From IMG/VR virus record IMGVR_UViG_2534681899_000007: DNA of 19,954 nt. One strand, 5' to 3'. This stretch comes from a virus. Taxonomy: Duplodnaviria; Heunggongvirae; Uroviricota; Caudoviricetes. Positions within the stretch are counted from its first letter, which is position 1. Every line of letters begins with the position of its first letter. The notes under the pieces are model-generated. The model had not been told where the DNA came from, did not search any database, and saw only the letters and a program-made list of their open reading frames with translations. This document shows positions 1 through 16,667 of the stretch, one piece after another. Made by a program: the position numbers and the translations under genes.

Positions 1-1284
1 TTACTTCTTCGCCTCTGCAACCACTTTACTACCCACGCCGCGGTTATTGTATTCCCACATGCGGTTGTAGTTAGTGTCATTCAGATTGCGCTGTATTTCG
101 TCGTTATCATCTACGCTGCCGGTATTACCCGCAAACGGACGATTAGAGATCACCGCATCGGCCCACGGTTTAGCCGTGTTAAAACCTTCGTTGATGGCGC
201 TATCACGGATCACCACCTGACCGTTGGTATTGGCATCAACATCCAGCGAGCGGCCCAGTTGCGCCACACCATCACCGAAAGCATTGAAACGGCTGTTTAC
301 GGCGAGGAAACCGTAGTAAATGTTGGACAGCGTAGCCGGTGCAAACACATACGCTTCTTGCTGAGTACGTGAGTTCACCACGCGGAATTCGGTGTTATCG
401 AACACCACTGCGCCGCGACCAGAAACGATATCCACATCCCCTTCAATGTAGCTGTTGGTCACCAGCGTACGCGGCTGACGGTTGGTTTCCAGACGGTTCT
501 GCACACCGCTGTTGGTGACAAAGAAGGTGTTCTGACGACCGAGAATGTTAACGTTGTTAATCTGTACCTGGTCACCATCAGTACGCAGTGCCACCGCCGG
601 ATGGTTACCTGCATCTACGCTATCGCCCAGCGTGTTTTCGATGGTCAGATTTTGCAGTTGCAGGCCATTGTTTTGTGACCAGAAGACCGCAGAGCAGAGA
701 ACACCGATACTGTCGCTGCGTTTGCTCTGGCAGCTATCGTACATATACCACGCTGGTTTACCTGGCATATATTTGCCGCGCGGGTTGACGTCGTGACGCC
801 AGTCGGCAGGGCTCATGCCACCATCAAGGGAAAGCCCAATCTTCACATCAATCGGTTTTTCACCTGTACCGTACAGAGTAATTCCACCCGGAGCGGCAGG
901 GACATATACCGTTCCCTGATACTCACCAGGCATCACGGCAATATACTGGCGCTTGTTGGTACGCTTGATAATTGCCGCATCTACCGCCGCCTGAATCGTG
1001 GTATGCGTTACACCTTGAGTGCCCGCCGGGCCGACAACAAAGTCAGGTTGCGCAGGCAGGGTAATCGGGGAAGGATTCCACGCTGCAGCACCTGGTGTCA
1101 GGGATGCAAAATAGTGTTGAGCATCGAAATTCTGCGCTTCTTTTGCCGACAGAATCGGGCGAGAAGAGGTACCAGGCGCGGTTTGATCAGAAGGACGTTG
1201 ATCGGGCGGGGTTGAGCTACAGGCGGTCAGCGTCACGCCAAAAGCCAATGCCAGCGCCAGACGGGAAACTGAAAATGTGTTCAC
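1..1284 (-). CDS. ybhC: YbhC-type outer-membrane lipoprotein (pectinesterase-like acyl-CoA thioesterase family); chromosomal gene flanking attB(lambda)
   Basis: Complete 427-aa ORF with an N-terminal signal peptide and lipobox (LTAC). The sequence is recognised as E. coli YbhC, which lies next to the lambda attachment site in the gal-bio interval. Confidence 0.88.
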   Translation of the reverse strand: MNTFSVSRLALALAFGVTLTACSSTPPDQRPSDQTAPGTSSRPILSAKEAQNFDAQHYFASLTPGAAAWNPSPITLPAQPDFVVGPAGTQGVTHTTIQAAVDAAIIKRTNKRQYIAVMPGEYQGTVYVPAAPGGITLYGTGEKPIDVKIGLSLDGGMSPADWRHDVNPRGKYMPGKPAWYMYDSCQSKRSDSIGVLCSAVFWSQNNGLQLQNLTIENTLGDSVDAGNHPAVALRTDGDQVQINNVNILGRQNTFFVTNSGVQNRLETNRQPRTLVTNSYIEGDVDIVSGRGAVVFDNTEFRVVNSRTQQEAYVFAPATLSNIYYGFLAVNSRFNAFGDGVAQLGRSLDVDANTNGQVVIRDSAINEGFNTAKPWADAVISNRPFAGNTGSVDDNDEIQRNLNDTNYNRMWEYNNRGVGSKVVAEAKK

Positions 1285-1330
1285 AGGTTGCTCCGGGCTA
1301 TGAAATAGAAAAATGAATCCGTTGAAGCCT

Positions 1331-1422
1331 GCTTTTTTATACTAAGTTGGCATTATAAAAAAGCATTGCTTATCAATTTGTTGCAACGAACAGGTCACTA
1401 TCAGTCAAAATAAAATCATTAT
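1331..1422. other. attL (B-O-P'): 15-bp core GCTTTTTTATACTAA (1331-1345) plus P' arm with IHF site and Int arm-type sites
   Basis: Exact lambda core sequence. Bacterial-type B half (CCTGC) lies to the left and phage P' sequence (GTTGGCATTATAAAAAAGCATTGCTTATCAATTTGTTGC) to the right. IHF-like TATCAATTTGTTG is at about 1370-1382; arm-type repeats CAGGTCACTAT, CAGTCAAAAT and AAAATCATTAT are at 1391-1422. Confidence 0.9.
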
Positions 1423-2489
1423 TTGATTTCAATTTTGTCCCACTCCCTGCCTCTGTCATCACGATACTGTGATGCCATGGTGTCCGACTTATGCCCGAGA
1501 AGATGTTGAGCAAATTTATCGCTTATCTGCTTCTCATAGAGTCTTGCAGACAAACTGCGCAACTCGTGAAAGGTTGGCGGATCCCCTTCGAAGGAGAGAC
1601 CTGATGCTTTTCGTGCGCGCATAAAATACCTTGATACTGTGCCGGATGAAAGCGGTTCACGACGAGTAGATGCAATTATGGTTTCTCCGCCAAGAATCTT
1701 TTTGCATTTATCAAGTGTTTCCTTCATTGATATCCCGAGAGCATCAACATGCAATGTTGTTGGGATGGCAATTTTTACTCCTGTTTTGCTTTGCTCGACA
1801 TAAAGATATCCATCTACGATATCAGACCACTTCATTTCGCATAAATCACCAACTCGTTGCCCGGTAACAACAGCCAGTTCCATTGCAAGTCTGAGCCAAC
1901 ATGGTGATGATTCTGCTGCTTGATAAATTTTCAGGTATTCGTCAGCTGTAAGTCTTGATCTCCTTACCTCTGATTTTGCTGCGCGAGTGGCAGCGACCGG
2001 GTTTGTTGTTATATGGCCTTCAGCTATTGCCTCTCGGAATGCATCGCTCAGTGTTGATCTGATTAACTTGGCTGACGCCGCTTTGCCCTCGTCTATGTAT
2101 CCATTGAGCATTGCCGCAATTTCTTTTGTGGTGATGTTTTCAAGTGGAGCATCAGGCAGACCCCTCCTTATTGCTTTAATTTTGCTCATGTAATTTATGA
2201 GTGTCTTCTGCTTGATTCCTCTGCTGGCGAGGATTTTTTCGTAGCGATCAAGCCATGAATGTAACGTAACAGAATTATCACTGTTGATTCTTGCTGTCAG
2301 AGGCTTGTGTTTGTGTCCTGAGAATAACTCAATGTTGGCCTGTATAGCTTCAGTTATTGCTATCCTCCTGTCTCGGCCTAATCCAAACTCTTTACCAGTC
2401 CTTGGGTCCCTGTAGCAGTAATATCCATTGTTTCTTATATAAAGGTTAGGGGGTAAATCCCGGCGCTCATGACTTCGCCTTCTTCCCAT
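1419..2489 (-). CDS. int: Integrase, tyrosine recombinase (lambda Int, essentially identical)
   Basis: 356-aa ORF beginning MGRRRSHERRDLPPNLYIRNNGYYCYRDP and ending RDDRGREWDKIEIK, matching lambda Int as recalled. Its 3' end overlaps the P' arm as in lambda. Confidence 0.97.
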   Translation of the reverse strand: MGRRRSHERRDLPPNLYIRNNGYYCYRDPRTGKEFGLGRDRRIAITEAIQANIELFSGHKHKPLTARINSDNSVTLHSWLDRYEKILASRGIKQKTLINYMSKIKAIRRGLPDAPLENITTKEIAAMLNGYIDEGKAASAKLIRSTLSDAFREAIAEGHITTNPVAATRAAKSEVRRSRLTADEYLKIYQAAESSPCWLRLAMELAVVTGQRVGDLCEMKWSDIVDGYLYVEQSKTGVKIAIPTTLHVDALGISMKETLDKCKKILGGETIIASTRREPLSSGTVSRYFMRARKASGLSFEGDPPTFHELRSLSARLYEKQISDKFAQHLLGHKSDTMASQYRDDRGREWDKIEIK

Positions 2490-2685
2490 TTCTGATCCTC
2501 TTCAAAAGGCTACCTGTTACTGGTCGATTTAAGTCAACCTTTACCGCTGATTCGTGGAACAGATACTCTCTTCCATCCTTAACCGGAGGAGGGAATATCC
2601 TGCATTCGCGCACCCATCGACGAACTGTTTCAAGGCTTCTTGGGCGTCGCTGGCGTGCGTTCCACTCCTGAAGTGTCAAGTACAT
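2467..2685 (-). CDS. xis: Excisionase (lambda Xis)
   Basis: 72-aa ORF MYLTLQEWNARQRRPRSLETVRRWVRECRIFPPPVKDGREY, matching lambda Xis. It overlaps the int start by 23 nt as in lambda. Confidence 0.95.
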   Translation of the reverse strand: MYLTLQEWNARQRRPRSLETVRRWVRECRIFPPPVKDGREYLFHESAVKVDLNRPVTGSLLKRIRNGKKAKS

Positions 2686-2708
2686 CGCAAAGTCTCCGCA
2701 ATTACACG

Positions 2709-2735
2709 CAAGAAAAAACCGCCATCAGGCGGTTT
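2709..2735 (-). terminator. Intrinsic terminator for leftward transcription, upstream of xis
   Basis: On the minus strand: 8-bp GC-rich stem (AAACCGCC / GGCGGTTT) with a 4-nt loop, followed by a T-run (TTTTTTCT). It overlaps the stop codon of the 55-aa ORF. Confidence 0.6.
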
Positions 2736-2892
2736 GGTGTTCTTTCAGTTCTTCAATTCGAATATTGGTTACGTCTGCATGTGCTATCTGCGCCCACAGC
2801 ATCCAGTGGGCATAGCAGTCGTTGATGTCCTCTGCTTCGATAACTCTGTTGAATGGTTCTCCATTCCATTCACCTGTGACTCGGAAGTGCAT
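2725..2892 (-). CDS. Small hypothetical protein (55 aa), not in the supplied ORF track
   Basis: Manually translated: MHFRVTGEWNGEPFNRVIEAEDINDCYAHWMLWAQIAHADVTNIRIEELKEHQTA. A GGAG Shine-Dalgarno lies 7 nt upstream of the ATG and the intrinsic terminator follows immediately. It sits between the accessory operon and xis. Confidence 0.45.
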   Translation of the reverse strand: MHFRVTGEWNGEPFNRVIEAEDINDCYAHWMLWAQIAHADVTNIRIEELKEHQTA

Positions 2893-3050
2893 TTATCATC
2901 TCCATAAAACAAAACCCGCCGTAGCGAGTTCAGATAAAAGAAATCCCCGCGAGTGCGAGGATTGTTATTGTCTTTTCTTCGTGCATTTGTCGCACTTTCG
3001 GCACCATCCAGATAGGCACATCCGTCCGCAATTAACACATATAGGCCACA

Positions 3051-3332
3051 TCATTTCTCCTCTTTTGGTTTATGAATCTGAATGGTCATGCCGCTTTGAG
3101 TGGTGACTACAATGACAGAACCAGGCTGAAGACTGTTAAGATTGAATGCTTCGTAAAACGAATCCAATGCCAGTGCTTTTTTATTCTTTCGGTTCCACCA
3201 ACGCCATCCCCTGCTACAGGCCATGTTGACAATCCACTGCCCACTCCTGTAAGCCATATAAAACCAGATGAGCAAAACCTGAAGGAATGCTATCCAGTCA
3301 ATAATCGTATATTTCGCGAAGGAGTACATCAC
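3051..3332 (-). CDS. Hypothetical protein (93 aa) with an N-terminal hydrophobic segment, probably membrane-anchored
   Basis: ORF in a tightly packed leftward operon; ATGA start/stop overlap with the upstream gene. Hydrophobic stretch IIDWIAFLQVLLIWFYMAY. Confidence 0.55.
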   Translation of the reverse strand: MMYSFAKYTIIDWIAFLQVLLIWFYMAYRSGQWIVNMACSRGWRWWNRKNKKALALDSFYEAFNLNSLQPGSVIVVTTQSGMTIQIHKPKEEK

Positions 3333-3718
3333 TTCACCTCCTGCTGTGGTGCTGCTGGCATTTCACGCCAGTGCGTAACTGAGTGCGGATCCGGATATTC
3401 GGTGCCATCATCCCAGCGATTGCCATTCCACATTGCAGACCACATCTCACCGTCTTCATACATGACCATTACCGGAATTAACTTATCCGGCATTCGCTCA
3501 CTACAGCTTATCCAACCATCCGGAGTTACCGGAGAGTTGCCAGATGGCTCGTTCAACTTGTAAGTTTGGCTTACAGGTTCGGCTTCCAGCGATGCCAGTG
3601 CGATACGAAACACATTGGCAAGCAGGCTGTCTGAAGATTGGTTATCGTGCGCCGGGTCGCTCAGGAAACCAGTGATGAATGATTTAATCTCCGCGCGTTC
3701 TTTGGTAATGGTGGTCAT
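3329..3718 (-). CDS. DUF551-like phage protein (129 aa)
   Basis: C-terminal region DGWISCSERMPDK...VTHWREMPAAP resembles the DUF551 signature common in lambdoid prophage early regions. Operon context supports it. Confidence 0.6.
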   Translation of the reverse strand: MTTITKERAEIKSFITGFLSDPAHDNQSSDSLLANVFRIALASLEAEPVSQTYKLNEPSGNSPVTPDGWISCSERMPDKLIPVMVMYEDGEMWSAMWNGNRWDDGTEYPDPHSVTHWREMPAAPQQEVK

Positions 3719-3719
3719 A

Positions 3720-4019
3720 TCACATCACCCTGAAGCCGTTGCATTTACGTAAGAAATCGCAGATATAGCCCTTCATTTTTTCATGCCAATCTCGATCATT
3801 CCCATTGCACCAACCATCAGGTGGAGTCCAGTTTTCTATCAGAGCAGCCATTTTCTTTGCTTTCGCCGGAGTAGCTGTTGCGGTATCGCAGTAATGACGA
3901 GTGTCAACAAACTTATCCATGCCATCGATATCAAGTACGCAAAACCATGTGTGATTCGGCATTTCAACAGATGGTATTTGTTGCCCACGTCGACGTTTAT
4001 CAATAAGACATACAGTCAT
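3720..4019 (-). CDS. Hypothetical protein (99 aa), Cys/His/Trp-rich
   Basis: ORF tightly packed in the leftward operon; start overlaps the stop of the upstream ORF (ATGA). No family recognised. Confidence 0.5.
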   Translation of the reverse strand: MTVCLIDKRRRGQQIPSVEMPNHTWFCVLDIDGMDKFVDTRHYCDTATATPAKAKKMAALIENWTPPDGWCNGNDRDWHEKMKGYICDFLRKCNGFRVM

Positions 4020-4561
4020 GGTTCCACCTTCTCTATTTGCTTAAGACCGTCTCTCACTGCATTAAGTACGCGTTCCAGATATTGGTATTTCGGGTTTGGT
4101 ATTGTTGGCCAGTTGGCATACCACGGATCATCACCAAAGAGATTCAGTAGTTTGTTACCGACGCCGAAACAGCAGCAGTTTTCTTTTACGTCATCGGCGT
4201 TTTCCGCCTCGTCCCACATTTCGCGAGCCAGTACGGCGTCGATTTCTCTCTCTCTTCGTAACTTTATGATTTCTGACTTCACGAAAAGCAGATTTGCATC
4301 GTTGTCATCGTCGACCGTGCTTAGCAGTTGAGGGTCGAAATTGTCGATTAGATAATCGTTGCTAACTCGCTTAATGAACGTCTGCACATCATCACCGCCC
4401 ATAGCAAACCAAGCCGCTGTCCACGCTTTTCCGTAGCAGGTGATGGTGATTCTTCCCTTTCCATGTTCGTAGTTTTCAATCATCACTCGAACCGGATCTA
4501 GTCGCTCTGCACCGGTTATAACGAATGACAACACATCAATCTTTTCAACCGTTACACTCAC
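4016..4561 (-). CDS. Hypothetical protein (181 aa) with acidic stretches (DDDNDAN, DEAENADD) and a CCC motif
   Basis: Long ORF in the operon frame pattern. No family recognised. The true start may be slightly downstream, as the first 17 nt overlap the upstream gene. Confidence 0.55.
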   Translation of the reverse strand: MSVTVEKIDVLSFVITGAERLDPVRVMIENYEHGKGRITITCYGKAWTAAWFAMGGDDVQTFIKRVSNDYLIDNFDPQLLSTVDDDNDANLLFVKSEIIKLRREREIDAVLAREMWDEAENADDVKENCCCFGVGNKLLNLFGDDPWYANWPTIPNPKYQYLERVLNAVRDGLKQIEKVEP

Positions 4562-4865
4562 TGATTGCCTCCTTTGCTGGGCTTTCTAGCTTCTGAGTGG
4601 TTGTATCAAACTCAAACAACTTAACCACGTCATCAAACAGGACATAATCGCCATCAGAATCTTCAGTCATGTCAGCGCCACAATCCTGACCGCACGAGTC
4701 GCAACCTCCCATATCAAGCTCGTATCGCTTCAGGTTTGCGATATTTGATAAATTCAGCGCCAGTACAGCCAGGTCATAAACCTCTTCGGCGGTATACCCT
4801 GCGCCATGCCCATACATTTCAATGCGGGATATGATTTCTTCTACCCGTTGTTTTGTGATCGTCAT
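4545..4865 (-). CDS. Small highly acidic hypothetical protein (106 aa) with a CxxCxxxC cluster
   Basis: About 22 Asp/Glu versus about 8 Lys/Arg. Cys cluster CDSCGQDC plus a C-terminal Cys. ATGA overlap with the upstream gene. Confidence 0.55.
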   Translation of the reverse strand: MTITKQRVEEIISRIEMYGHGAGYTAEEVYDLAVLALNLSNIANLKRYELDMGGCDSCGQDCGADMTEDSDGDYVLFDDVVKLFEFDTTTQKLESPAKEAISECNG

Positions 4866-5425
4866 TTTTGCTCACCTCCCTGTTCTTCCAGAAAAATACG
4901 CATAGCCTCAAGCATCTCTTCGGTGTCATACGGAGACAGCTTGTCACGCAGGATGTGTTCAATGCTGTTAATGAACTTTCGGATTGCTTTGCGTTCAATT
5001 TCAGTCAGGAAAGCATCGGTGGCTGGGGTGTCTGATTGCATAGACTTTGCGCGATAGTCATTCCACCCTCTTGCATACATGGGATTAACTTGCACTCCAT
5101 CTTTTACGCAATATGCCTGCCCTCCACGGTTGATAACCTTGATTTCGTCCATAGCGCCAGACTTCAGCCCAGCATTCTCCGCCGCCAGCGCCGAAAACTT
5201 CTCGTGAGCCAACTTAACAGCCGCATCAGCCTGCTTAATTGACTCAATCGCTTTCTGGTGGTCTTCGGACAGAGCCGAAATCTTGGCCTCCGCTTCAGCA
5301 AATTTACGCACCAGATATTCAGCGTTTGTTTCGTTAACCTTTAAATCTCGTGGGATGCATTTACCTTTCAGAAATCCATCCATCTCAATTAGTGACATTT
5401 GTTTCATTTCTTCCCACTCCGCCAC
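4862..5425 (-). CDS. Hypothetical protein (187 aa); N-terminal half looks helical/coiled-coil, possibly Ea22-like
   Basis: ORF in operon. Ala/Glu/Lys-rich heptad-like segment ([46 protein letters not shown]). The Ea22-like assignment is a guess. Confidence 0.5.
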
Positions 5426-5601
5426 ATTGCATTCAGATATTTGTTTTGATTTACTGATGGAAAAGAATTTCTCTTAAGCAATTCCTCTCTCGATGGCATT
5501 GGCTTTACGCGTTGGCGAATAATCATTTCTGCCGGAAGAATGCCGGGATTGTATGCAAGTCCTCTCATGGTAAATTCCTCAGTCATTACTGATAGCGCCA
5601 T
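5404..5601 (-). CDS. Small hypothetical protein (65 aa, possibly starting at an internal Met)
   Basis: ORF fills the gap between two operon genes but overlaps both neighbours by about 22 nt. Coding status uncertain. Confidence 0.35.
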
Positions 5602-5875
5602 AGCGTGAGCGGTAATTACGCAGGCGCGGGTCGATATATTCAGGGAAGTGGGTATATGTGGCTTTGCGGAATGGTCGGATTGATGTTTCGTTTATTCGGT
5701 CTTTTTCCTGTTTTTCTGCGAGTTGTATATCGCGTCGGCACTTCCGTTCTTCTTTTGTTTCTGGTGGCAGAGCAAGAAACGCGTCGAGATTATTCTTGAT
5801 ATTTTCCAGCACCTCCGATACGGAATTGCCGGAACAGCGGCGCGGGTCATCCGCACCATACAGAGGCGCTGGCAT
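5579..5875 (-). CDS. Hypothetical protein (98 aa), basic
   Basis: ORF directly downstream of the exonuclease remnant in the same leftward orientation. No family recognised. Confidence 0.5.
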
Positions 5876-5891
5876 GGTTTTCTCCTGTTGA

Positions 5892-6164
5892 TTATTTAGC
5901 TAACTTTTTCCAGATCGCTGAAACGTATTTGGCTTGGTGAATGGCATCATCAAGCGCGTTGTGGCGAGTTCCTTTGAATGACATATCTCGCTTAGGGTCG
6001 AATCCTATTACCTTCCCAAGTTCGACGATTGTTCTTACGTCGCGGTCATTCCACCACTGCCACGGAACTGGCTGCCCTGTCAGCGAATAACTGTTTCGGA
6101 GAATAACGCAGTCAAATGATGCTCCATTCCCCCAAGCCGAAAGCAGACCGCAACGACCTCGCAA
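5892..6164 (-). pseudogene. DnaQ-like (DEDDh) 3'-5' exonuclease, C-terminal fragment (5'-truncated)
   Basis: Contains Exo II-like ([10 protein letters not shown]) and Exo III-like (HNALDDAIHQAKY) motifs, but the Exo I (DxE) region is absent. The upstream part of the ORF overlaps the helicase fragment on the opposite strand. Confidence 0.6.
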
Positions 6165-6553
6165 TTGCTCACATCTCCGGAAGCCTGAAGGCGATGGCGA
6201 AAGACCTGAAAACGCCGGTTATCTCCCTGAGTCAGCTTTCACGCGATGTTGAGAAGCGACCAAACAAACGCCCGACAAACGCAGATTTGCGTGATTCAGG
6301 AAGCATTGAACAGGACGCAGACTCAATCATCATGCTCTATCGGGAAGCTGTATATGACGAGAACAGTAGCGCCGCGCCATTTGCTGAAATCATTGTGACG
6401 AAAAACCGTTTTGGCTCACTTGGTACGGTTTACCAGCGGTTCTGCAACGGACACTTTGTTGCATGTGACCAGGATGAAGCCAGACAGATTTGCACAGCAT
6501 CAAATGCACCCGCTGCACGTGGAAGACGATATGCACAAGGGGCTGACGTATGA
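6116..6553 (+). pseudogene. DnaB-family replicative helicase, C-terminal fragment (5'-truncated)
   Basis: [45 protein letters not shown]...[16 protein letters not shown] matches the C-terminal RecA-like region of DnaB-type helicases (E. coli DnaB: [46 protein letters not shown]). The N-terminal roughly 300 aa are absent; an in-frame stop lies at 6104-6106. Confidence 0.75.
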
Positions 6554-6609: not shown

Positions 6610-6637
6610 TGGATTAAGAACGAGGGGGATTCCTACG

Positions 6638-7270
6638 ATGGGTAGTGGTCGAATCTTCCAGATACCGGAAGAGACGATTAAGTGTCAGCCGTTCGAGTGT
6701 CCTGATCACTTCTACGTAATTGGTGGGATGGATTTTGGATGGGATCACCCACAGGCGCAGGTTCAGCTTTGGTGGGATAAGGACGCAGACACAATCTACG
6801 TTTCACGCGTGTGGAAGGCGAAAGAAAAAACAGCTGTTCAGGCATGGGGAGCTGTTAAATCATGGGCGCATAAAGTGCCAACCGCATGGCCTCATGACGG
6901 AAACCAGCATGAGAAGGGCGGCGGTGAGCAGCTCAAAGGGCAGTACGCGGACGCTGGTTTTATGATGTTGCAGGAGCATGCGACATGGCCTGATGGCGGT
7001 AACGCTGTGGAGCCTGGAATCACTGAATTGCGCGACATGATGCTTGATGGTCGCTTCAAAGTATTCAACACCTGTGAGCCATTCTTTGAGGAGTTCCGCC
7101 TCTATCACCGTGATGAAAACGGGAAGATCGTCAAGCTTAACGACGACGTGCTATCCGCCGTTCGCTATGCATACATGATGCGCCGCTTCGCCAAAATGAT
7201 GCGCGACATCAAAAAACCAAAAGAGAAAAAGATACCAGCCCCAATCAGGCCCATCGCACGGAGAACTTAA
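6638..7270 (+). pseudogene. Terminase large subunit, C-terminal nuclease-domain fragment (ATPase domain missing)
   Basis: 210-aa ORF with RNase-H-like nuclease-domain features (VIGGMDFGWDHP ... DDVLSAVRYAYMM). Its stop overlaps the portal start (TAAATG), as for P22 genes 2 and 1. An in-frame stop at 6596-6598 leaves no room for the ATPase domain. Confidence 0.7.
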
Positions 7271-8863
7271 ATGGCCGACGAAAACAGACTCAATTCCATT
7301 CTGTGTAAGTTTGACGCGGACTGGATGGCGAGCGATGAAGCCAGAACCGAGGCGACAAATGACCTGTATTTTAGCCGAGTGTCGCAATGGGATGACTGGC
7401 TATCAAACTACACTACCCTGCAATATCGCGGACAATTCGATGTTGTTCGCCCGGTGGTCAGGAAGCTGGTCGCAGAGATGCGCCGTAACCCTATCGACGT
7501 TCTCTTCAGACCAAAAGACGGAGCTAATCCTGATGCTGCCGATGTGTTGATGGGAATGTATCGTACCGATATGCGCCATAACACGGCAAAAATTGCCGTT
7601 AACGTTGGCGTTCGTGAGCAGATAGAGTCCGGCGTTGGTGCATGGCGTCTGGTCACACAGTACGAAGACAACGATCCAACAAGCAACAACCAGGTAATCA
7701 GACGCCTGCCAATCCATGAAGCCTGCTCACACGTCATATGGGACGCCAACAGCAAGCAGATGGATAAGAGCGACGCTAAGCACTGCACGGTGATTAACGC
7801 CTTGTCGCGCAATGGCTGGAAAGAGTTCGCAGAGGATTACGGTATTGATCCGGACACCTTGCCATCTTTCCAGAATCCGAACGATACATGGCTGTTTCCG
7901 TGGGTATCGAATGATGTCGTCTACGTCGCTGAGTATTACGAGGTCGAAGAGAAGAAAGAGAAAGTCTTCATCTACCGCGACCCGCTGACAGGTGAGCCGG
8001 TAAGCTATTACCAGCAGGATATCAAAGACGTCATCGACGACCTGGCTAATCGTGGATTCATTAAGGTAGCAGAGCGCAAGGTGAAGCGTCGGCGTGTGTA
8101 TAAGTCGATCATCACCTGTACGCAGATACTGAAAGACCGCGAGAAGATAGCCGGAGAGCATATTCCAATCGTTCCAGTGTATGGTGAATGGTCATTCGCT
8201 GGTGACAAGGAGTGCTACGAAGGAGTGGTAAGGCTGACGAAAGACGGTCAACGCCTTCGTAACATGATCATGTCGTTCAACGCCGATATTGTTGCTCGTT
8301 CACCGAAGAAGAAACCGACCTTCTTCCCTGAGCAAATCGAAGGCTACGAATACATGTACGGTGGAAATGATGACTATCCGTACTATCTGCAGAACAGGAC
8401 CGATGAAAACGGTAACGACCTGCCGATTGGTCCAATCTCCTACATGGAAAACCCTGAAGTGCCGCAAGCCAACGCTTACATGCTTGAGGCAGCCACCAAC
8501 GCAGTGAAAGAGGTGGCTAGTCTTGGAGTGGATGCGCAGGCGGCAAATGGTCAGGTCGCTTTCGATACCGTCAATCAACTGAACATGCGGGCAGACCTTG
8601 AGACATACGTGTTTCAGGATAACCTGGCTACCGCAATGCGACGTGATGGCGAGATTTATGCCTCAATGGTCAACGATATTTATGACGTTCCTCGCCATGT
8701 AACGCTGACTCTTGAAGACGGAAGCGAGAAAGACGTTCAACTCTACGCGCAAGTTGTAGATTATCCAAACCGTATGCCTGTTGGTAGCGGTAACCAGTTG
8801 GCGAAGTGGAACGGTTGGAATTACTTCCACCGGAAGGAACCTTGCGATAACGGGAGCGAATAA
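7271..8863 (+). CDS. Portal protein (P22 gp1-like), C-terminally shortened or chimeric: 530 aa versus about 725 aa
   Basis: N-terminal roughly 490 aa closely resemble P22 portal as recalled ([18 protein letters not shown]..., [13 protein letters not shown]..., [22 protein letters not shown]...). The last roughly 35 aa do not, and the ORF stops immediately before gp10. Confidence 0.8.
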
Positions 8864-10282
8864 ATGCCGATTCAGCAACTTCCGCTTATGAAAGGTGTCG
8901 GCAAAGACTTTCGAAACGCCGACTATATCGACTATTTGCCAGTGAATATGCTGGCTACACCCAAAGAAATCCTGAACAGCAGCGGATATCTTCGCTCATT
9001 CCCGGGCATTGCCAAACGTTCTGATGTGAACGGTGTATCGCGCGGAGTCGAGTACAACATGGCGCAGAATGCTGTATATCGCGTGTGTGGCGGCAAGCTG
9101 TACAAAGGCGAAAGTGAAGTCGGTGATGTTTCAGGAAGTGGTCGTGTATCAATGGCGCATGGTCGGACATCACAGGCGGTAGGCGTTAATGGTCAACTGG
9201 TCGAGTATCGCTATGATGGCACGGTTAAAACCGTCTCAAACTGGCCTGCAGACAGCGGATTTACGCAGTATGAGTTAGGTTCGGTTCGTGACATTACTCG
9301 CTTACGTGGGCGTTATGCGTGGTCAAAAGACGGCACTGATTCATGGTTTATCACTGACCTTGAAGACGAATCGCATCCTGACCGCTACAGCGCACAATAT
9401 CGCGCAGAATCGCAGCCGGACGGTATCCTCGGCATCGGAACATGGCGAGACTTCATCGTCTGCTTTGGTTCATCGACGATTGAATATTTCTCCCTGACTG
9501 GCGCAACCACCGTTGGTGCTGCTTTGTATGTAGCCCAGCCATCGCTGATGGTGCAGAAAGGCATTGCCGGAACCTACTGCAAAACGCCGTTTGCTGACTC
9601 GTATGCGTTTATCAGCAATCCGGCAACAGGTGCTCCGTCTGTATACATCATCGGCTCCGGTCAGGTATCACCAATCGCCAGCGCGAGCATTGAGAAAATC
9701 CTCCGCTCCTACACTGCTGATGAACTGGCTGATGGCGTGATGGAATCGTTGCGATTTGATGCGCATGAGTTGCTGATTATCCATCTTCCGCGCCATGTTC
9801 TCGTGTACGACGCATCTTCAAGCGCCAATGGTCCGCAATGGTGTGTGCTGAAAACAGGCCTGTATGACGATGTGTACCGCGCTATCGACTTCATTTACGA
9901 AGGCAATCAGATAACGTGCGGAGATAAGCTGGAGTCCGTGACCGGGAAATTGCAGTTCGATATCAGCAGCCAGTACGACAAGCAGCAGGAACACCTGCTG
10001 TTTACTCCGTTGTTCAAAGCGGATAACGCCAGAGTGTTTGACTTTGAGGTTGAATCGTCAACTGGCGTTGCGCAGTATGCTGACCGCCTTTTTCTCTCTG
10101 CAACCACTGACGGCATCAATTACGGGCGTGAGCAGATGATTGAGCAGAATGAACCGTTCGTTTACGACAAACGCGTTTTGTGGAAGCGAGTAGGGCGCAT
10201 CAGGAAAAATGTTGGCTTCAAATTGCGCGTTATCACGAAGTCACCTGTCACTCTGTCTGGCTGCCAGATAAGGATTGAGTAA
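8864..10282 (+). CDS. P22 gp10-like head completion / tail hub protein (472 aa)
   Basis: Full-length ORF recognised as P22 gene 10 product ([16 protein letters not shown]...SGCQIRIE), of the same length. Confidence 0.88.
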
Positions 10283-10983
10283 TGGCGGATTCATCACTGA
10301 ATAATCCTGTCGCGGTTCAGGCTGCGCGCCTTGATGCTTCAATTTTGCCACGCAATATATTCAGCCAGTCTTACCTGCTGTATGTCATAAATCAGGGTGC
10401 TGATGTTGGCGCAATTGCCGGGAAGGCAAATCAGGCTGGTCAGGGCGCTTACGATGCTCAGGTAAAAAACGATGAACAGGACGTCGAACTGGCAGATCAC
10501 GACGCAAGAATCACCGCAAACACAAAAGCGATAAATCTCCTTGAGGTCAGGTTAACAACCGCCGAAGGGAAGATAGTCGTACTACGTAGCGATGTTGATT
10601 ACTTGCTGGATGAGGTTATCGATATTCAGGCGCATCTGGTCACTGTTGACCAAAGACTGGATGGCGTAGAAAGCGATGTATCTGACATTAAGAGTGATTA
10701 CGTATCGAAAACCGTAACCGAATCGCAGTCTCTTGCGTCACCGCTGGATGTAAAAACATCATATTCAGTTGATGGAATTCAGGTTATTGGAGCAAGAAAT
10801 ACCGGATGGACTGCAGCCACAGGTACACCTCTTCTTGGCTCATTCAACGCTAACCAGTCATACACAGTCGGCACTACGTACACACAATCCGAAGTCGCAG
10901 CACTCGCTACAGGTTTGCAGCAGGCGCGGCAGCGTATTCTGGCGCTTGAAACGGCACTTAGATTACATGGGCTGATTGACTGA
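10282..10983 (+). CDS. P22 gp26-like tail needle (233 aa)
   Basis: Length and sequence ([27 protein letters not shown]...; heptad-rich coiled coil) match the P22 tail needle; synteny after gp10. Confidence 0.88.
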
Positions 10984-11438
10984 TGATTACATTCAAACCA
11001 ACGCGAAACATCGACCTGATAGAATCCGTAGGAAATCACCCTGACATTATCGCCGGGAGCAACAACGGTGATGGATACGACTACAAACCTGAATGCCGTT
11101 ACTTTGAGGTTAACGTGCACGGGCAGTTCGGCGGAATTGTTTACTATCAGGAGATTCAGCCGCTGACCTTTGATTGCCACGCCATGTACCTGCCAGAGAT
11201 TCGCGGATTCAGCAAGGAAATTGGGCTGGCGTTCTGGCGATACATTCTGACTAACACCACCGTTCAGTGCGTAACATCGTTCGCTGCACGCAAATTCCGA
11301 CACGGTCAGATGTACTGCGCAATGATTGGCCTTAAGCGTGTAGGAACCATCAAGAAATACTTCAAAGGCGTGGATGACGTGACTTTTTACAGCGCAACAC
11401 GCGAAGAACTAATCGACTTCCTGAATCACGGGAGATAG
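10983..11438 (+). CDS. P22 gp14-like virion assembly protein (151 aa)
   Basis: Position between gp26 and gp7 as in P22; start overlaps the gp26 stop (TGATG). Confidence 0.7.
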   Translation: MITFKPTRNIDLIESVGNHPDIIAGSNNGDGYDYKPECRYFEVNVHGQFGGIVYYQEIQPLTFDCHAMYLPEIRGFSKEIGLAFWRYILTNTTVQCVTSFAARKFRHGQMYCAMIGLKRVGTIKKYFKGVDDVTFYSATREELIDFLNHGR

Positions 11439-11440
11439 CC

Positions 11441-12133
11441 ATGTTATATGCATTTAAGCTGGGCAGAAAACTGCGCGGCGAGGAACCTTATTGCCCTGAA
11501 AAAGGCGGGAAAGGTGGCAGCTCTGATAAAAGCGCAAAGTATGCCGCAGAAGCTCAGAAGTATGCCGCAGACCTGCAAAATCAGCAGTTCAACACCATCA
11601 TGAACAACCTGAAGCCGTTTACTCCTCTGGCTGATAAGTATGTCGGCAGCCTCGAGAACTTATCGTCTCTGGAAGGGCAAGGTCAGGCACTTAACCAGTA
11701 TTACAACTCTCAGCAGTACAAAGATCTTGCTGGTCAGGCTCGTTATCAGAGTCTGGCGGCAGCGGAAGCAACAGGTGGATTAGGTTCCACCGCAACCAGT
11801 AATCAGTTAGCAACAATCGCACCAACGCTAGGTCAGCAATGGCTATCTGGACAAATGAACAATTACAACAACCTGGCAAATATCGGTCTTGGCGCTCTTC
11901 AGGGGCAGGCAAACGCCGGGCAAACATATGCCAACAACATGAGTCAGATTTCACAGCAAAGCGCGGCGCTGGCGGCGGCAAACGCCAACCGACCGTCAGC
12001 ATTGCAGCAGGGTGTTAGTGGTGCTGCATCCGGTGCGCTTTTGGGTGGTGGCATAGCCAGTGCTCTCGAGCTATCAACTCCGTGGGGTGCTGGTATCGGT
12101 GCTGGTCTTGGTCTGCTTGGCTCGTTGTTTTAA
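11441..12133 (+). CDS. P22 gp7-like ejection (DNA transfer) protein
   Basis: 230-aa ORF MLYAFKLGRKLRGEEPYCPEKGGKGG...; Gln/Ala/Gly-rich with a Gly-rich hydrophobic C-terminus, as in P22 gp7. Confidence 0.85.
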   Translation: MLYAFKLGRKLRGEEPYCPEKGGKGGSSDKSAKYAAEAQKYAADLQNQQFNTIMNNLKPFTPLADKYVGSLENLSSLEGQGQALNQYYNSQQYKDLAGQARYQSLAAAEATGGLGSTATSNQLATIAPTLGQQWLSGQMNNYNNLANIGLGALQGQANAGQTYANNMSQISQQSAALAAANANRPSALQQGVSGAASGALLGGGIASALELSTPWGAGIGAGLGLLGSLF

Positions 12134-12143
12134 GGGGTAATCA

Positions 12144-13559
12144 ATGGCTACGTGGCAACAGGGTATTAATTCTGGTGGTTTTCTGGCTGGCATTGGTGCG
12201 CAAAACGAGAATGCGCCAAAGGCAAGCGACATTAACGCAACGCTTGGTCTGATCCGCGAAAACAATGAACTGGCTCGCTCAGGTGCAAATAACGTTGGTC
12301 TGACCGCGTTACGTGGTCTGGCTGGAGTTGCTGATATTTATAAGCAGGAACAGCAACAGAAAGCGATTAGTGCGTTCAATAAGGTTCACGCTGATGCATG
12401 GGCTTCTGGTGATCCATCGGGACTATTTAAGTTTGCCCAGGAAAATCCAGCGTTTGTTGCACAGGCACAACAGGCGTTTTCCGGTCTTAATGAGCAGCAA
12501 CGCAACGATATGGGCGATTTAGCCATGAGGGCTAACGTCGCTCTTTCTCAGGGACCGGAAGCCTACAGTAAATTCATTACTGACAACAAGGACAGGTTAA
12601 ATCGCGTTGGTGCTAATGCTGACTGGATGATTCAGACAGGTATCCAGAATCCAGAGCAGCTATCACACATGCTGACTACTATGTCTCTCGGTGCGCTTGG
12701 GCCAGAAAAGGCGTTTGCTGTTCAGGATAAGATGGCTGGTCGTGAAATTGACCGAGGCAGGCTGGCAGAGACAATCCGCAGCAATCAGGCTGGTGAAGCA
12801 CTTCAGGCGAGAGGGCAAAACCTTTCCTATCAGTCAGCAATGACTGGGCACAATATCGCAGCACAACGCTTGGCTCTGGATCAGCAAGAGTTCGGGTTTA
12901 AGATGCAGCAAGCGCAGGAAAAGGCTCAGCAGTTGATTAGCGAAGCACCTAAGCTGTCAGTAAACATGGAAAAAGGCATCGAGACGGCTGTAAACAATGC
13001 CACAGCATCATCAAACTCAGCCAATTCTATGAGTGCGCTTGCTCAACAGTTCAGAGCAGAAAAACCAACGACAGGTTTGTTCGGTAACGCACAGAACATG
13101 TTCGCAAAACTTACCGGAAGCGATACGACATTGCGTGATTTGCGCATTCGCCAAAATGCCCTTGTTAACAGTCAGGTTCTTAAATTCCTACCTCCCGGCC
13201 CCGCAACGGATAAAGACGTTGAGATCGTTCGTCAGGGTGCACCAACTGACATGGATAACCCTGAGACGGTCGCAAGATGGCTTGATGCTATGGCAAACCT
13301 TGAGCGACGAAACGCGCAGTTTAATGAGTTTAAAGCCGAGTGGATGAGCGCGAATGGCAACCCTGGACAATCGCGTAATGGCGGTCAGATATTGGGGTTG
13401 GATGTTAAAAAAGGTGAATCATTGGGGAGTGCCGTTAAGCGGTATATGTCAATGAATACTGACGCAGCGCCAGCACAAGATTCGACACCTTCAGGAGAAC
13501 CACGGAATCAGGTTGGATCATATACATCAAAATCAGGCATTCAATTTACGGTGGAATGA
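12144..13559 (+). CDS. P22 gp20-like ejection protein (471 aa)
   Basis: Same length and position as P22 gp20. Confidence 0.85.
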
Positions 13560-15397
13560 TGAAAGTAACTGCAAACGGTAAGACATTTACCTTTCCTGAT
13601 GGTACGAGCACCGAAGATATTGGCACCGCCATTGATGAGTATTTTGCTGGTCAGGCTGTTCAGCAACAAACAGTTAATCAGGCCAATAATGCACCAACAC
13701 GGGAAGAACCATCATTGATCCAACAAGCTGGCGATTGGCTCACTGGTGGTCAAAGTGCAGGGCAAATTGCAGAACAGGCTGGTCGTGGTCTGGTAAACAT
13801 ACCATTTGACGTATTGCAGGGCGGCGCAAGTCTGATTAATGCAATCAGTCAGGGGCTTGGTGGACCCAAGGTTTTGGATGATGTTTATCGTCCAGTAGAC
13901 AGACCGACAGACCCCTACGCGCAAGCCGGTGAAACAATTGGTGGGTATTTAGTTCCAGGAGTTGGAACGGCAGGAAGCATGGCTATTGGATCACTGGCAG
14001 AGGCCGCAAATCAGAAAGGCGATTTCGCACAAAATGCAGCTAAAAATGCCGGAGTTAACCTTGCCACTCAGGGTGTTCTTTCCGCAGCAGCAAAGGGAAT
14101 AGGGCGTGGAATAACGGCTATAAAAGGTGATATTGCGCCAGAAGTGGCGAAGAAAATTACCACATCAGAATCGATGGGCGTGACACCAATGACATCTGAT
14201 GTTATCCCGCCGAAAAATGCTTTCACTCGCGGCCTAACTCAGGATGCCGAGGGGGCTTTGCTCGGGACAGGCTCAAAGCGAGCGGAGCAATATGCAACGC
14301 GTAGTAAGCTGGTAAGTAATTATTTTGACCGTTTTGGTGAGTACAACCCTGATGATGTGGTGAAATCTCTTACCACCACGTTAAGGGGGCGGAAGGATGC
14401 CGCTGGCGCTGTTATCAATGACGTCACCAATAAAATGGGTAATGCCGCAGTTGATACCACAAATACCATGAATGCTCTGAATACAGCGATCGCAAGACAG
14501 GAACGGCTTGGGACGTCTGCCAATCAAAGCCTGCTTACATCCTTGCGTAACCTACGTGAAGAATTAGCAAACCCTGCAACTGATTTGGATGTTACGTTTG
14601 ATCTCTTGCGTCAGCACAGAACAGCATTTAGATCTAATGTTCAGGGAGATGCTATGGTCTTCCCCAACCAGGCAAAAGCAGCTACCAATATGGTAGAGAA
14701 TGCAATGTCAAAAGACCTTCGTAACGCAGTTGCTAAAAACCTCGGTGCATCAGACGCAGCAAAATACCTTAAAGCAAATTCCGATTATGCAAACGTTTAT
14801 AATAAGGTGCTTAATAAAAACATTGCTAACAAGCTCAACAAGGCAAGCAGTGAAGCCAGTCCTGAACTTATAAATACCGTTGTATTAAGCAGAAAACCAT
14901 CTGACGTGAAACGAATATGGAGCGCCCTGGATGATAAAGGGAAAGATGCTATGCGTGCAGCTTACGTCAGCAAAATAGCGGAAAAGGCCGGTGACTCTCC
15001 AGCCAAGTTCATCACTGAAGTTAATAAGCTGAAATCTCAGTCAGGCGGTGAAATTTACAACACTATTTTTTCTGGAAAGCACATGAAAGAGCTTGATGCT
15101 CTTCATGAAGTTCTACAGCAAACAGCAAGGTCAGACACCGCAAATGTAGTAACTCAGACGGGGCAATCACAAGCCAACAGGATAAGGACGATTGGCGCAA
15201 CTGCGACTCTTGGTGTATCAATGGGGCTTGAGGCTGGCTTTGGTGCAATGATGCGTTTGTATGAGTCCAAAGCAGCAAGGAATGCTCTCTTACGTCTGGC
15301 AAACACTAAAGCTGGAACGCCAGCCTATGAAAGAGCGTTGAGTAACGCTGCAAATGCCATCAGGCCGCTGCTTGCTACTGAGGCAACACAGCAGTAA
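13556..15397 (+). CDS. P22 gp16-like ejection protein (613 aa)
   Basis: Length and position match P22 gp16; ATGA overlap with gp20. Confidence 0.85.
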
Positions 15398-15421: not shown

Positions 15422-15811
15422 TTAACATTTTCTTTTTACTTTTCCAACAAAAGCTTTGGTTGAATCCATATTCCCATAACCAGAAATGGTTTTCGACATT
15501 AAAACTGTTCCATTAGGATGTATTACCCATGAGTCGATAACTCGTTGAGTTTCGCCATTCGCGCCGATTCCAATGATGGAGTTTTTAGACAATGCTTTGT
15601 AAGCCATGCCGCCCGCATCCGTCCCAGAATATGTGATACTGGCATCTTCACCGTTTGTCTTAATGATGAATGTTCCACTAAAACCATCTTCTTCCGGTTG
15701 AAAATTATTTCGTTCTGAATAGCTTATTCCGTGCATATCTCCAACGACCCAGCACTCTGCTGAGACAGAAAACGAGAAGACAAGGAAAGCCATTGCTATA
15801 ATCAATTTCAT
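15422..15811 (-). CDS. Small Sec-exported protein (129 aa), beta-rich, Cys near both ends of the mature chain; moron in the mnt operon
   Basis: Signal peptide MKLIIAMAFLVFSFSVSA with cleavage after SVSA. AAGGG Shine-Dalgarno 5 nt upstream of the ATG. AT-rich relative to flanking phage genes. Lies 15 nt downstream of the other moron ORF. Confidence 0.65.
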   Translation of the reverse strand: MKLIIAMAFLVFSFSVSAECWVVGDMHGISYSERNNFQPEEDGFSGTFIIKTNGEDASITYSGTDAGGMAYKALSKNSIIGIGANGETQRVIDSWVIHPNGTVLMSKTISGYGNMDSTKAFVGKVKRKC

Positions 15812-15826
15812 TTTAAGCCCTTATTG

Positions 15827-16162
15827 TTATTGATTCTTTTTGCACGGAAATGTTTTTCCTACTGCTAGGGCGGTTAGTATAACTGCACTCTCATTTCTTG
15901 ATTCTGGGTTTTTGTTTAGATATTTCTCAACGATATCGGTGTATTGATACATGTCAACGCCATCAGGAGGACATAGAGAACCAATTAGTATCAATGAGTC
16001 AGTTACTCCGCGCAAATATCCAGTAATGTAAAGCGATGAAAAATCATCACCCTTTTTACCTTGTTGAATGTTGTAAAGAAGGTCATTACCCGTTTGAAGC
16101 TCGCGCAGCTCAGCACTGGAAGAAGAGACAACTGCTAACAAGAACAGTGATAGAAATCTCAT
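15827..16162 (-). CDS. Small Sec-exported protein (111 aa), probably helical with 2 Cys; possible Rap1a/Tai4-like periplasmic immunity-type fold (tentative)
   Basis: Signal peptide MRFLSLFLLAVVSSSSA. Its start codon overlaps the mnt stop (ATGA) and an AAGGA Shine-Dalgarno lies inside the mnt 3' end. Mature part contains ...GYLRGVTDSL...SLCPPDG...ILTALAVGKTFPC. Confidence 0.65.
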   Translation of the reverse strand: MRFLSLFLLAVVSSSSAELRELQTGNDLLYNIQQGKKGDDFSSLYITGYLRGVTDSLILIGSLCPPDGVDMYQYTDIVEKYLNKNPESRNESAVILTALAVGKTFPCKKNQ

Positions 16163-16413
16163 TTCAAATCCTTTTCATAAATCTTTTTAAGTGTCTCAAA
16201 CACTATAGCCTTGAACTGCTCAGCCTGCTGATCAGCCAAGCGTTCAGCTTCGTCGCGATATCCTGTAATCGGTGATGGTTTTGATAGTGCATCCTGAACG
16301 ATTTGTAATAACTCAGAGTTCATTGACCTTCCGTTAGCCTCGGCTCTTAATTTCAATTTTTCTCTTACTTCCAAAGGCATACGGAAGTTAAAGTGCGGAT
16401 CATCTCTAGCCAT
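16159..16413 (-). CDS. mnt: Mnt repressor (P22 immI maintenance repressor, ribbon-helix-helix)
   Basis: MARDDPHFNFRMPLEVREKLKLRAEANGRSMNSELLQIVQDALSKPSP... is nearly identical to P22 Mnt as recalled. Transcribed divergently from arc/ant. Confidence 0.93.
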   Translation of the reverse strand: MARDDPHFNFRMPLEVREKLKLRAEANGRSMNSELLQIVQDALSKPSPITGYRDEAERLADQQAEQFKAIVFETLKKIYEKDLK

Positions 16414-16435
16414 GCCATCACTCCAAGTTAGTGTA

Positions 16436-16487
16436 TTGACATGATAGAAGCACTCTACTATATTCTCAATAGGTCCACCGTGGACCT
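16436..16487. promoter_or_regulatory. immI control region: Pant (-35 TTGACA 16436-16441, -10 TATATT 16459-16464), Arc operator (16441-16461) and Mnt operator (16471-16487), with divergent Pmnt overlapping
   Basis: ATGATAGAAGCACTCTACTAT matches the P22 arc operator. AGGTCCACCGTGGACCT is a perfect 17-bp palindrome matching the P22 mnt operator. Confidence 0.85.
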
Positions 16488-16503
16488 ATATTGTGAGGTG
16501 AAC

Positions 16504-16665: not shown

Positions 16666-16667
16666 AG

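Follow-up and report, generated by a model that had tools for sequence, protein, structure and literature searches.

A lambda-type att-int-xis module at the left end of a probable young, deletion-crippled P22-like prophage in the classical lambda attachment site of Escherichia coli

The window, by which we mean the whole stretch of 19,954 nucleotides that was analysed, opens in the host chromosome with ybhC (1..1284, minus strand), encoding a 427-aa protein of the pectinesterase family as judged from its open reading frame and its annotation in E. coli E9 and other genomes. This gene is the left chromosomal flank of attB-lambda, the site itself being located between ybhC and ybhB. The 15-bp core (O) of attL, GCTTTTTTATACTAA, is situated at 1331..1345 (plus strand), is identical to lambda 27724-27738 and is directly preceded by the bacterial B arm (..gttgaagcct), while the P' arm occupies 1346..1422 (plus strand). 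A motif scan of this arm returned matches to the IHF site H' (TATCAATTTGTTG, 1371-1383) and to the arm-type sites P'1 (1392-1401), P'2 (1402-1411) and P'3 (1413-1422), positioned at +33, +54, +64 and +75, respectively, from the core centre. All components of a lambda attL (B-O-P') are present, namely a core with its 7-bp overlap, H', three P' sites and a B arm next to ybhC. The int stop codon is overlapped by P'3.

The adjoining int gene (1419..2489, minus strand) is an open reading frame for a lambda-type tyrosine integrase of 356 aa, an assignment based on Pfam, PDB and lambda comparisons. Pfam matches above cut-off (PF09003 at residues 1-69, PF02899/PF22022 at 81-171 and PF00589 at 179-345) account for the arm-binding, core-binding and catalytic domains, and the lambda Int chains 5j0n, 1z1g and 1z1b of the PDB were matched over their full length. 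The catalytic set of lambda Int comprises R212, K235, H308, R311 and H333 together with the nucleophile Y342, and all six were found at the lambda positions. The protein shares 351 of 356 residues (98.6%) with lambda Int, the substitutions being D118N, H164P, A245T, I248V and E264K, and its identity to the Int proteins of phages mEp332 and ev099 is 99.7%. H164P, A245T and I248V are common to the sequenced phages HK106, JEP4, 434 and mEp332, and E264K to mEp332, leaving D118N as the sole residue absent from these four isolated phages. The exact protein, D118N included, is encoded by prophages L018, L019, L021, L024 and L025, in which repressor, cro, cII and N genes are present together with O/P or O/DnaB genes, and also by L027, a locus that stops short of the immunity region; the prophages combining this Int with complete early regions are all located at ybhC. 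L021 and L027 match the 1476-bp attL-int-xis-pI segment at 100% identity. L019 and L025 differ from it at 27 and 22 nucleotides, respectively, across the whole compared segment and specify an identical Int despite approximately 20 nucleotide differences inside int, all of which are necessarily synonymous. The presence of the exact protein in prophages that retain full early regions ruled out D118N as a lesion acquired after decay.

The excisionase gene xis (2467..2685, minus strand) overlaps int by 23 nt, as in lambda, and specifies a 72-aa protein which matches PF07825 over its full length (residues 1-72, E = 3.9e-41), placing it in the Exc family of winged-helix proteins. It is identical to lambda Xis at 71 of 72 residues (98.6%), the one change, G59S, being common to HK106, JEP4, 434 and mEp332. 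No xis was called in the relatives L023 and L026; loss of the gene was ruled out there, their DNA being 100% identical to the window across xis. Upstream lies the -35 region of pI with its CII-binding repeat TTGC-N6-TTGC (TTGCGTGTAATTGC, 2698..2711, minus strand), which is intact, the sequence from 2645 to 2732 matching lambda throughout, and the homologous feature of phage 434 is annotated as a pI CII site. Three terminator-like hairpins (2735-2716, 2931-2912 and 2963-2942, together spanning 2716..2963 on the minus strand) are positioned upstream of xis, the first corresponding to a terminator annotated in phage 434.

The first-pass annotation of this DNA had described the att core, the P' sites, int and xis as undisrupted, and on this point the sequence, the open reading frames and the lambda comparison agree. 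It had also described the module as lambda-identical, whereas identity is limited to the 184 bp of 1331-1514; the 1.6-kb alignment of 1331-2968 to lambda 27724-29361 has 39 mismatches but is gap-free, at 97.6% identity, and Int and Xis carry five changes and one change, respectively. Judged from this alignment, the match to lambda is far beyond chance. The comparisons support the prediction that attL and the recombination proteins are structurally competent. Core, P' arm, gene order, the 23-nt overlap, the pI/CII site and the ybhC-ybhB location are all shared with lambda (the module corresponding to lambda 27724-29078), but the pL-N-nutL control region of lambda is absent and the rest of the remnant is P22-like rather than lambda-like. 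This int-xis was found in 1973 of 5426 complete E. coli genomes (~36%).

Beyond the module, the remnant bears the marks of three internal deletions, which account for the loss of immunity, replication, nin/Q, lysis, small-terminase, scaffold and coat genes. Early-left accessory genes are retained at 2725..5875 (minus strand); based on PHROGs and on Pfam matches of the identical locus L009/L020, these comprise a lambda orf55-like gene, genes for DUF4752, DUF551, DUF7739, phiTE_072-like and DUF2737 proteins, and one for the anti-RecBCD protein Abc2. A C-terminal fragment of an Rv2179c-like exonuclease gene (5892..6164, minus strand; PHROGs, and PF16473 at profile positions 100-177 of 177 only) represents the left edge of the first deletion as established by comparison with E9. 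Its right edge is a C-terminal 145-aa fragment of a DnaB-type replicative helicase gene (6116..6553, plus strand; phrog_19 positions 471-601 of 621), which can be aligned with the final ~420 bp of the helicase gene in E9. Relative to E9, the remnant lacks the stretch running from abc2 to the helicase 3' end, and with it the recombination genes, kil/cIII, N, pL, repressor, cro, cII and an O-like gene. The second deletion junction is located at 6626..6634, where alignments to L008, L010 and L011 break and the flanks overlap by 9 bp; this deletion is specific to a sub-lineage and removed the region from ninB to Q together with gene 3, which encodes the small terminase, and the 5' portion of the gene for the large terminase, and the gene lists of L008, L010 and L011 retain nin, Q and GP3_package. 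What remains of the large terminase is a C-terminal 210-aa fragment (6638..7270, plus strand), identified by PHROGs and by mapping to E9, its Pfam match, in L009, being to Terminase_6C only. It is followed by an in-frame portal::gp4 fusion of 530 aa (7271..8863, plus strand; phrog_156 plus phrog_637, and E9 mapping), consisting of portal residues 1 to ~499 joined to the last ~33 residues of gp4. The third deletion, at the fusion junction (8761-8767), where the flanking alignments overlap briefly, took away the C-terminus of the portal, the scaffold and coat genes and the greater part of gp4. The 530-aa product was found in 58 blocks of public assemblies.

The late genes that remain are of the P22 type. 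Full-length gp10, gp26, gp14, gp7, gp20 and gp16 occupy 8864..15397 (plus strand), with Pfam matches to Phage_stabilise, DUF2824, P22_gp7, Inj_translocase and Phage_P22_gp16; gp10, gp26, gp14 and gp7 are equal in length to their E9 counterparts, and gp20 and gp16 are uninterrupted and, as in identical loci, of full length. An immI-type region follows at 15422..17612, comprising genes for a 129-aa protein of unknown function, a Rap1a-like protein and Mnt on the minus strand, and arc and ant on the plus strand, ant being broken by a stop codon at 17322-17324. The tailspike gene (17714..19954, plus strand) specifies a protein of 746 aa whose N-terminal domain is of the P22 head-binding type. Among the window's open reading frames and the gene calls of the identical locus, no member of the N, CI, Cro, CII, CIII or Kil families was detected with PHROGs or Pfam, and neither PHROG/Pfam matches nor the E9 comparison revealed lysis, scaffold, coat or immunity genes in the window. 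The element differs from a functional P22-like (Lederbergvirus) prophage in that TerL is truncated and the genes for TerS, scaffold, coat, lysis and replication initiation are missing. That replication, packaging, capsid and lysis functions have been deleted or truncated, as had been proposed at first reading, is borne out by the helicase and terminase fragments, the portal::gp4 fusion and the genes that are absent.

The window ends with the tailspike gene. In the assemblies L005, L006, L007 and L010, all of them 100% identical to the window over the stretches they share with it, attR (P-O-B') is located outside the window, ~400 bp past the tailspike stop codon and next to ybhB; L007, for instance, is 100% identical to window positions 7714-19954, and L009 to 1-18863. 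One and the same attR is present in the four assemblies, with a 15-bp core identical to that of attL, a P arm in which P1, P2, H1 and H2 are motif matches and X1 and X2/F are conserved in sequence, and a B' arm adjoining ybhB. A downstream attR with a matching core, which the first-pass annotation had asked to be looked for, was found in these assemblies, complete with its P arm. The P arm is 87.5% identical to lambda and is almost unchanged from the attP allele carried by HK106 and JEP4; degeneration of the arm was ruled out on the basis of that match. The empty attB junction reads ybhC ...gttgaagcctGCTTTTTTATACTAActtgagcg... ybhB and the circular attP junction ...cacgttcaGCTTTTTTATACTAAgttggcatt....

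Comparable arrangements are known. Intact P22-like prophages with this int-xis occur at ybhC in E. coli genomes such as that of E9 (NZ_CP104500), whose prophage lies at the same site, with int-xis at 98% nucleotide identity, the gp10-gp16 order of the remnant, mnt/arc/ant and a tailspike gene by attR, but with different early-left accessory genes and a different receptor-binding part of the tailspike. Measured from core to core, that prophage is ~39.5 kb as compared to ~19.0 kb for the remnant. The isolated Lederbergvirus JEP4 (MT740315) has its lambda-type int, xis and attP immediately downstream of the tailspike gene, its Int differing by two residues from that of the remnant and the P arm of its attP being 96.6% identical to the attR arm, and phiHS3, likewise a P22-like phage, both integrates, upstream of ybhC, and excises. 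Both are complete plaque-forming phages, unlike the remnant, from which the genes for immunity, replication, lysis, scaffold and coat are missing. The mosaic of lambda-type int and P22-type late genes pointed out in the earlier annotation is real, albeit already known from JEP4 and phiHS3. The cryptic prophages DLP12, Rac, Qin and e14 have likewise lost lytic genes (replication, terminase, portal, capsid and lysis) and kept integrase and tail-fibre or tailspike genes at their borders, a pattern documented statistically in PMC7744054. A search of 5,426 complete E. coli genomes did not reveal any single place covering at least 80% of the window.

With regard to expression, Int is a tyrosine recombinase that bridges arm-type and core-type sites with the aid of host IHF, while Xis and Fis bend the P arm of attR, so that attL and attR recombine to yield attB and a circle. 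The pI promoter requires CII and its product is Int only, without Xis. Transcription of lambda int-xis requires N antitermination, and N-defective prophages fail to excise (PMC6022878). Of a self-sufficient lambda-type excision circuit, N, repressor, cro and cII are absent and the pI/CII site is the sole remainder. We detected no sigma-70-like sites on the minus strand between 2700 and 7400 in a crude consensus scan, which weak or non-consensus promoters could escape. With pL, N, cI and cII lost and terminator-like hairpins standing ahead of xis, the int-xis module is probably silent, a reading that draws on the missing genes and the promoter scan. The proposed mechanism is that a single deletion, in taking pL, nutL, N, repressor, cro and cII, would have abolished every known route of expression; pI survives without CII, and its firing would give Int without Xis. 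The remnant would thus have been grounded through regulatory loss and not through damage to int or att, in contrast to the int/att defects to which grounding is usually put down (PMC6379469).

If the module is silent, excision would need both Int and Xis in trans, from a phage or prophage of lambda-type specificity. Curing in trans by heteroimmune superinfection is classical lambda genetics. Excision would here amount to mere curing of the cell, because there are no origin-binding or replication genes, complete helicase, small terminase, coat or lysis genes, and the circle could neither replicate nor be packaged. The earlier suggestion that the remnant may still be excisable agrees with the structure of the proteins and of attL and with the attR of the identical assemblies, but is overstated in that it left expression out of account, with pL, N and cII deleted. 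Its companion suggestion, that the remnant is mobilisable, appears unlikely given the absence of small-terminase and replication genes. The pac site of P22 is located in the small-terminase gene.

All of this makes it very probable that a young P22-like prophage of the Lederbergvirus type, crippled by deletions, occupies the classical lambda attB, and that its left end carries a common natural allele of the lambda-type recombination module, with att-int-xis undamaged and regulation lost. Relatives differ by 0-1 SNP per 12 kb and form a nested deletion series, all with the portal::gp4 fusion; youth is nevertheless to be read as relative, as the ant nonsense codon indicates that decay did not proceed by deletion alone. 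Recency, deletion-driven decay and the position of int at the prophage border explain the intactness of the module without any need to appeal to selection. An enrichment of integrase and tail-fibre genes among incomplete prophages has been published as a general pattern (PMC7744054). The intactness amid decay that the first-pass annotation had singled out is unremarkable in a very young remnant that decayed by a few internal deletions, and the pattern is ordinary, well documented and already known.

A sequence-intact module could still be non-functional, through D118N, which is absent from Int of the isolated phages compared, or through the attR P arm, which differs from lambda at many positions; the element would then stay fixed even with Int and Xis expressed. 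We regard this as unlikely, as the exact Int occurs in many ybhC prophages with complete early regions and the synonymous-only differences within int point to a selected, working allele, while the P arm nearly matches the HK106/JEP4 attP, keeps its P1, H1, P2, X1, X2 and H2 motifs and adjoins a 15-bp core identical to that of attL. The decay itself might be suspected of being an assembly artefact that conceals a complete prophage, the likely source of the window being a draft scaffold (GCA_000352485.1). The chance of this is negligible, given that the same junctions (portal::gp4, and the helicase fragment beside abc2) recur in many independent NCBI and Logan assemblies from separate runs, and that the fusion is an in-frame open reading frame with briefly overlapping flanking alignments.

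A further rival reading is selection, in the form of a domesticated or helper-dependent, satellite-like element that excises by means of its own Int and Xis, for instance upon superinfection by a lambdoid phage that provides CII or antitermination. The retention of int, xis, attL and attR with about half of the prophage gone would fit such an element, as would the intact pI and CII site, and a satellite-type hypothesis has been proposed for integrase enrichment in cryptic prophages (PMC7744054). Yet 0-1 SNP per 12 kb in the remnant lineage leaves no time for selection to show or to be needed, the int-xis DNA does not differ from that found in prophages whose early regions are complete, and pI would deliver Int without Xis. 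The content is a subset of that of a P22-like prophage, with no small-terminase gene and, by PHROG/Pfam, no regulator/alpA, replication module or capsid- or packaging-redirection genes of the kind that mark a PICI-like phage satellite, and sub-lineages have suffered further haphazard gene loss in the manner of plain decay; we consider such selection very unlikely. It is more doubtful still that the remnant is a trans-activatable 'att-site squatter', silent on attB-lambda, which excises or recombines only upon infection by a phage with lambda-type Int and whose module is selected for that role; were this so, the outcome of infection may be altered, or tailspike and immI genes donated.

Read as a young remnant with lost regulation, the locus carries little weight beyond annotation, and illustrates how border genes such as those for integrase and tailspike outlast lytic genes. 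It would nonetheless provide a clean example of a prophage immobilised by regulatory loss (pL/N/cII) and not by int or att damage. The attB-lambda of the strain is occupied, and a supply of lambda-type Int and Xis could cure the remnant. Tailspike and immI genes could pass between the remnant and incoming P22-like phages via homologous recombination, and the nested deletion series in the relatives could offer a small-scale natural record of how a prophage decays over time.

Direct alignment of window positions 1331-2968 with positions 27724-29361 of lambda (NC_001416) was free of gaps, with 39 mismatches and 97.6% identity, and since no mismatch falls within 1331-1514 the core, H′ and P′1-P′3 sequences are exactly those of lambda. 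The host gene ybhC occupies the start of the window (1-1284, minus strand); beyond it the lambda att core GCTTTTTTATACTAA (1331-1345) lies between the bacterial B arm and the P′ arm of lambda, the latter containing the IHF site H′ (1371-1383) and the arm-type sites P′1-P′3 (1392-1422). The int (1419-2489) and xis (2467-2685) genes, both on the minus strand and overlapping as in lambda, are open reading frames of lambda length (356 and 72 amino acids, respectively). Relative to lambda, 24 nucleotides and five amino acids are changed in int (D118N, H164P, A245T, I248V and E264K), and five nucleotides and one amino acid in xis (G59S), so that the first-pass annotation of an intact, lambda-identical module at 1331-2685 was correct as to intactness and overstated as to identity. 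Pfam matches above the curated cut-offs cover the three Int domains and, at full length, the Exc domain, the crystallised lambda Int chains align end to end with the window Int, and the six catalytic residues of lambda Int (R212, K235, H308, R311, H333 and Y342) are all present.

H164P, A245T, I248V and Xis G59S are common to the sequenced phages HK106, JEP4, 434 and mEp332, and E264K is also found in mEp332, leaving D118N as the only Int substitution not found among the phages compared. An exact-sequence look-up established that the same Int protein is encoded by ybhC-located prophages in many assemblies, of which five (L018, L019, L021, L024 and L025) keep repressor, cro, cII, N and O/P or O/DnaB genes; the locus of a sixth, L027, ends before the immunity region. 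The 1476 bp attL-int-xis-pI segment is 100% identical in L021 and L027, and in L019 and L025 the int gene differs at roughly 20 nucleotides, necessarily all synonymous as the Int protein is the same. That D118N is a lesion of decay was rejected, given its occurrence in prophages with full early regions and the synonymous-only variation in int; from these comparisons D118N appears to be part of a common, selected Int allele. Across L018-L027 the identical Int (int at 10001-11071 in all but L027, where it is at 7890-8960) occurs beside no fewer than six distinct early regions, which vary in repressor, N, recombinase (Erf, RecT, Rad52) and replication genes (P, DnaB, primase-helicase) and illustrate how modules are shuffled about an integration cassette that stays fixed; several of these loci also share identical int-xis DNA.

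Absence of a matching attR downstream, which the first-pass annotation had named as evidence against excision, is contradicted by assemblies identical to the window where they overlap it. L009 (GCA_000352485.1, scaffold KB733082.1), probably the source or a clone-mate, covers window 1-18863 and matches it at 100% identity throughout; L007 matches 7714-19954, also at 100%, and extends past the window end. Approximately 400 bp past the tailspike stop codon lies attR, ...CACGTTCA-GCTTTTTTATACTAA-CTTGAGCG..., followed by ybhB and bioA, and the 519 bp containing it was found unchanged in four assemblies. Its P arm is 87.5% identical to that of lambda, 93% to HK106 attP (from which a handful of aligned positions differ) and 96.6% to JEP4 attP, with motif matches to P1, P2, H1 and H2 and conserved X1 and X2 sequences. 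As the attR core is identical to that of attL and the P-arm sites are present, the substrates for excision exist, and the remnant appears to be structurally excisable. Outside the window, in the tailspike-attR interval of L007 (12390-12500), the lambda sib/tI hairpin region has a homologue (..TTAGCGCAAGAAGAC..CACCTTGCGCTAA..) that is retained upstream of the P arm and differs in length from lambda by one base.

PHROG and Pfam matches, coupled with alignment to the intact P22-like prophage of E. coli strain E9 (approximately 39.5 kb, with the same site and the same int-xis), established three internal deletions in the remnant, which measures approximately 19.0 kb from core to core. The first, between C-terminal fragments of an exonuclease (5892-6164) and a DnaB helicase (6116-6553), removed the recombination genes, kil/cIII, N, pL, repressor, cro, cII, an O-like gene and most of the helicase; the second (6626-6634) removed the nin region, Q, the lysis genes, the small terminase and approximately 287 codons of the large terminase. 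The third (8761-8767), with loss of scaffold and coat, left portal residue ~499 joined in frame to the final ~33 residues of gp4; the resulting 530-amino acid open reading frame (7271-8863) is exactly conserved in 58 blocks of public assemblies. Full-length genes are gp10, gp26, gp14, gp7, gp20, gp16, mnt, arc and the tailspike. In ant (16734-17612) a single in-frame stop at 17322-17324 (KKTNELSAKE in E9, KKTN*LSAKE in the window) shortens the product to 196 amino acids, which is also called in related remnants; the frame beyond is still open up to its normal end. Between gp16 and mnt (15422-16162, minus strand) lie a 111-amino acid gene of the Rap1a family (PF18602), named after T6SS immunity proteins, and a 129-amino acid gene with no Pfam match, both of which resemble moron or exclusion genes and persist in every related remnant seen. 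In the 746-amino acid tailspike (17714-19954) the P22 head-binding domain is confined to residues 4-114; the remaining ~630 residues matched no Pfam family and contain a GDS-type motif recalling SGNH esterases, suggestive of a receptor-destroying domain that deacetylates rather than cleaves glycosidic bonds.

Lambda int and xis share a transcript that starts at pL and needs N antitermination to pass the tL terminators upstream of xis, and N-defective prophages fail to excise (PMC6022878). Autonomous excision of the remnant is unlikely on sequence grounds, because pL, nutL and N are deleted, no sigma-70-like site was found on the minus strand at 2700-7400 (a consensus scan, and weak evidence), three terminator-like hairpins lie upstream of xis at 2716-2963 (likewise weak evidence from a scan), and pI, although its CII site TTGC-N6-TTGC (2698-2711) is intact, is without CII as cII is deleted. 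Moreover, pI gives Int but not Xis. Excision by Int and Xis provided in trans is plausible, the curing of a prophage in trans by a heteroimmune phage being classical lambda genetics. The first-pass proposal that the remnant may still be excisable therefore holds for its structure and probably fails for its own expression, and that of mobilisation is not borne out: an excised circle would have no genes for replication, coat or lysis, nor the small-terminase gene and the pac site within it, and excision would thus mean that the element is lost. The proposed donation of tailspike or immI to incoming P22-like phages is plausible by homologous recombination, albeit generic to any prophage remnant.

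Look-ups with the portal::gp4 fusion protein and with the tailspike retrieved independent assemblies that have both the fusion and the helicase-fragment junction in common. L011 and L012 still contain nin, Q, lysis, gene 3 and full-length terminase, L008 has lost only lysis, and L005, L010 and L013 have extra deletions inside the gp10-gp7 block; independent deletions there join window 10575 to 11800 or 9054 to 11844. An assembly artefact was excluded, as the same junctions recur in both NCBI and Logan assemblies. Related assemblies diverge from the window by 0-1 SNP per 12 kb of overlap, indicating that the remnant is young, and it appears to be clonally inherited and whittled down by deletions. 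Over a period with almost no point mutations a mutational hit in the 1.3-kb border segment is not expected, and deletions removing int would put ybhC at risk too. In incomplete prophages integrase and tail-fibre genes are statistically enriched while terminase, portal, capsid and lysis genes are preferentially lost, 'deletion shielding' of border genes being one proposed cause (PMC7744054); the window is an instance of this pattern, with no need to invoke selection.

The combination of lambda-type int with P22-type late genes, as first annotated, is a real mosaic and is not new. In JEP4, an isolated Lederbergvirus, the tailspike gene is directly followed by window-type int, xis and attP, and the P22-like phage phiHS3 goes through a full cycle of integration, upstream of ybhC, and excision. 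Of the 30 best genome hits at least 15 are P22-like prophages in one stretch with ybhC and int, and this int-xis occurs in 1973 of 5426 complete E. coli genomes. The integration module is thus real and of a kind already known, the original observation being mostly right and its interpretation partly supported. Compared across window 6626-11844, L005, L008 and L010-L013 amount to a small-scale natural record of prophage decay through time. Prophage 'grounding' is usually attributed to int or att defects (PMC6379469), whereas here the control region is lost and int, xis, attL and attR are pristine; grounding through control-region loss is the one slightly instructive point.
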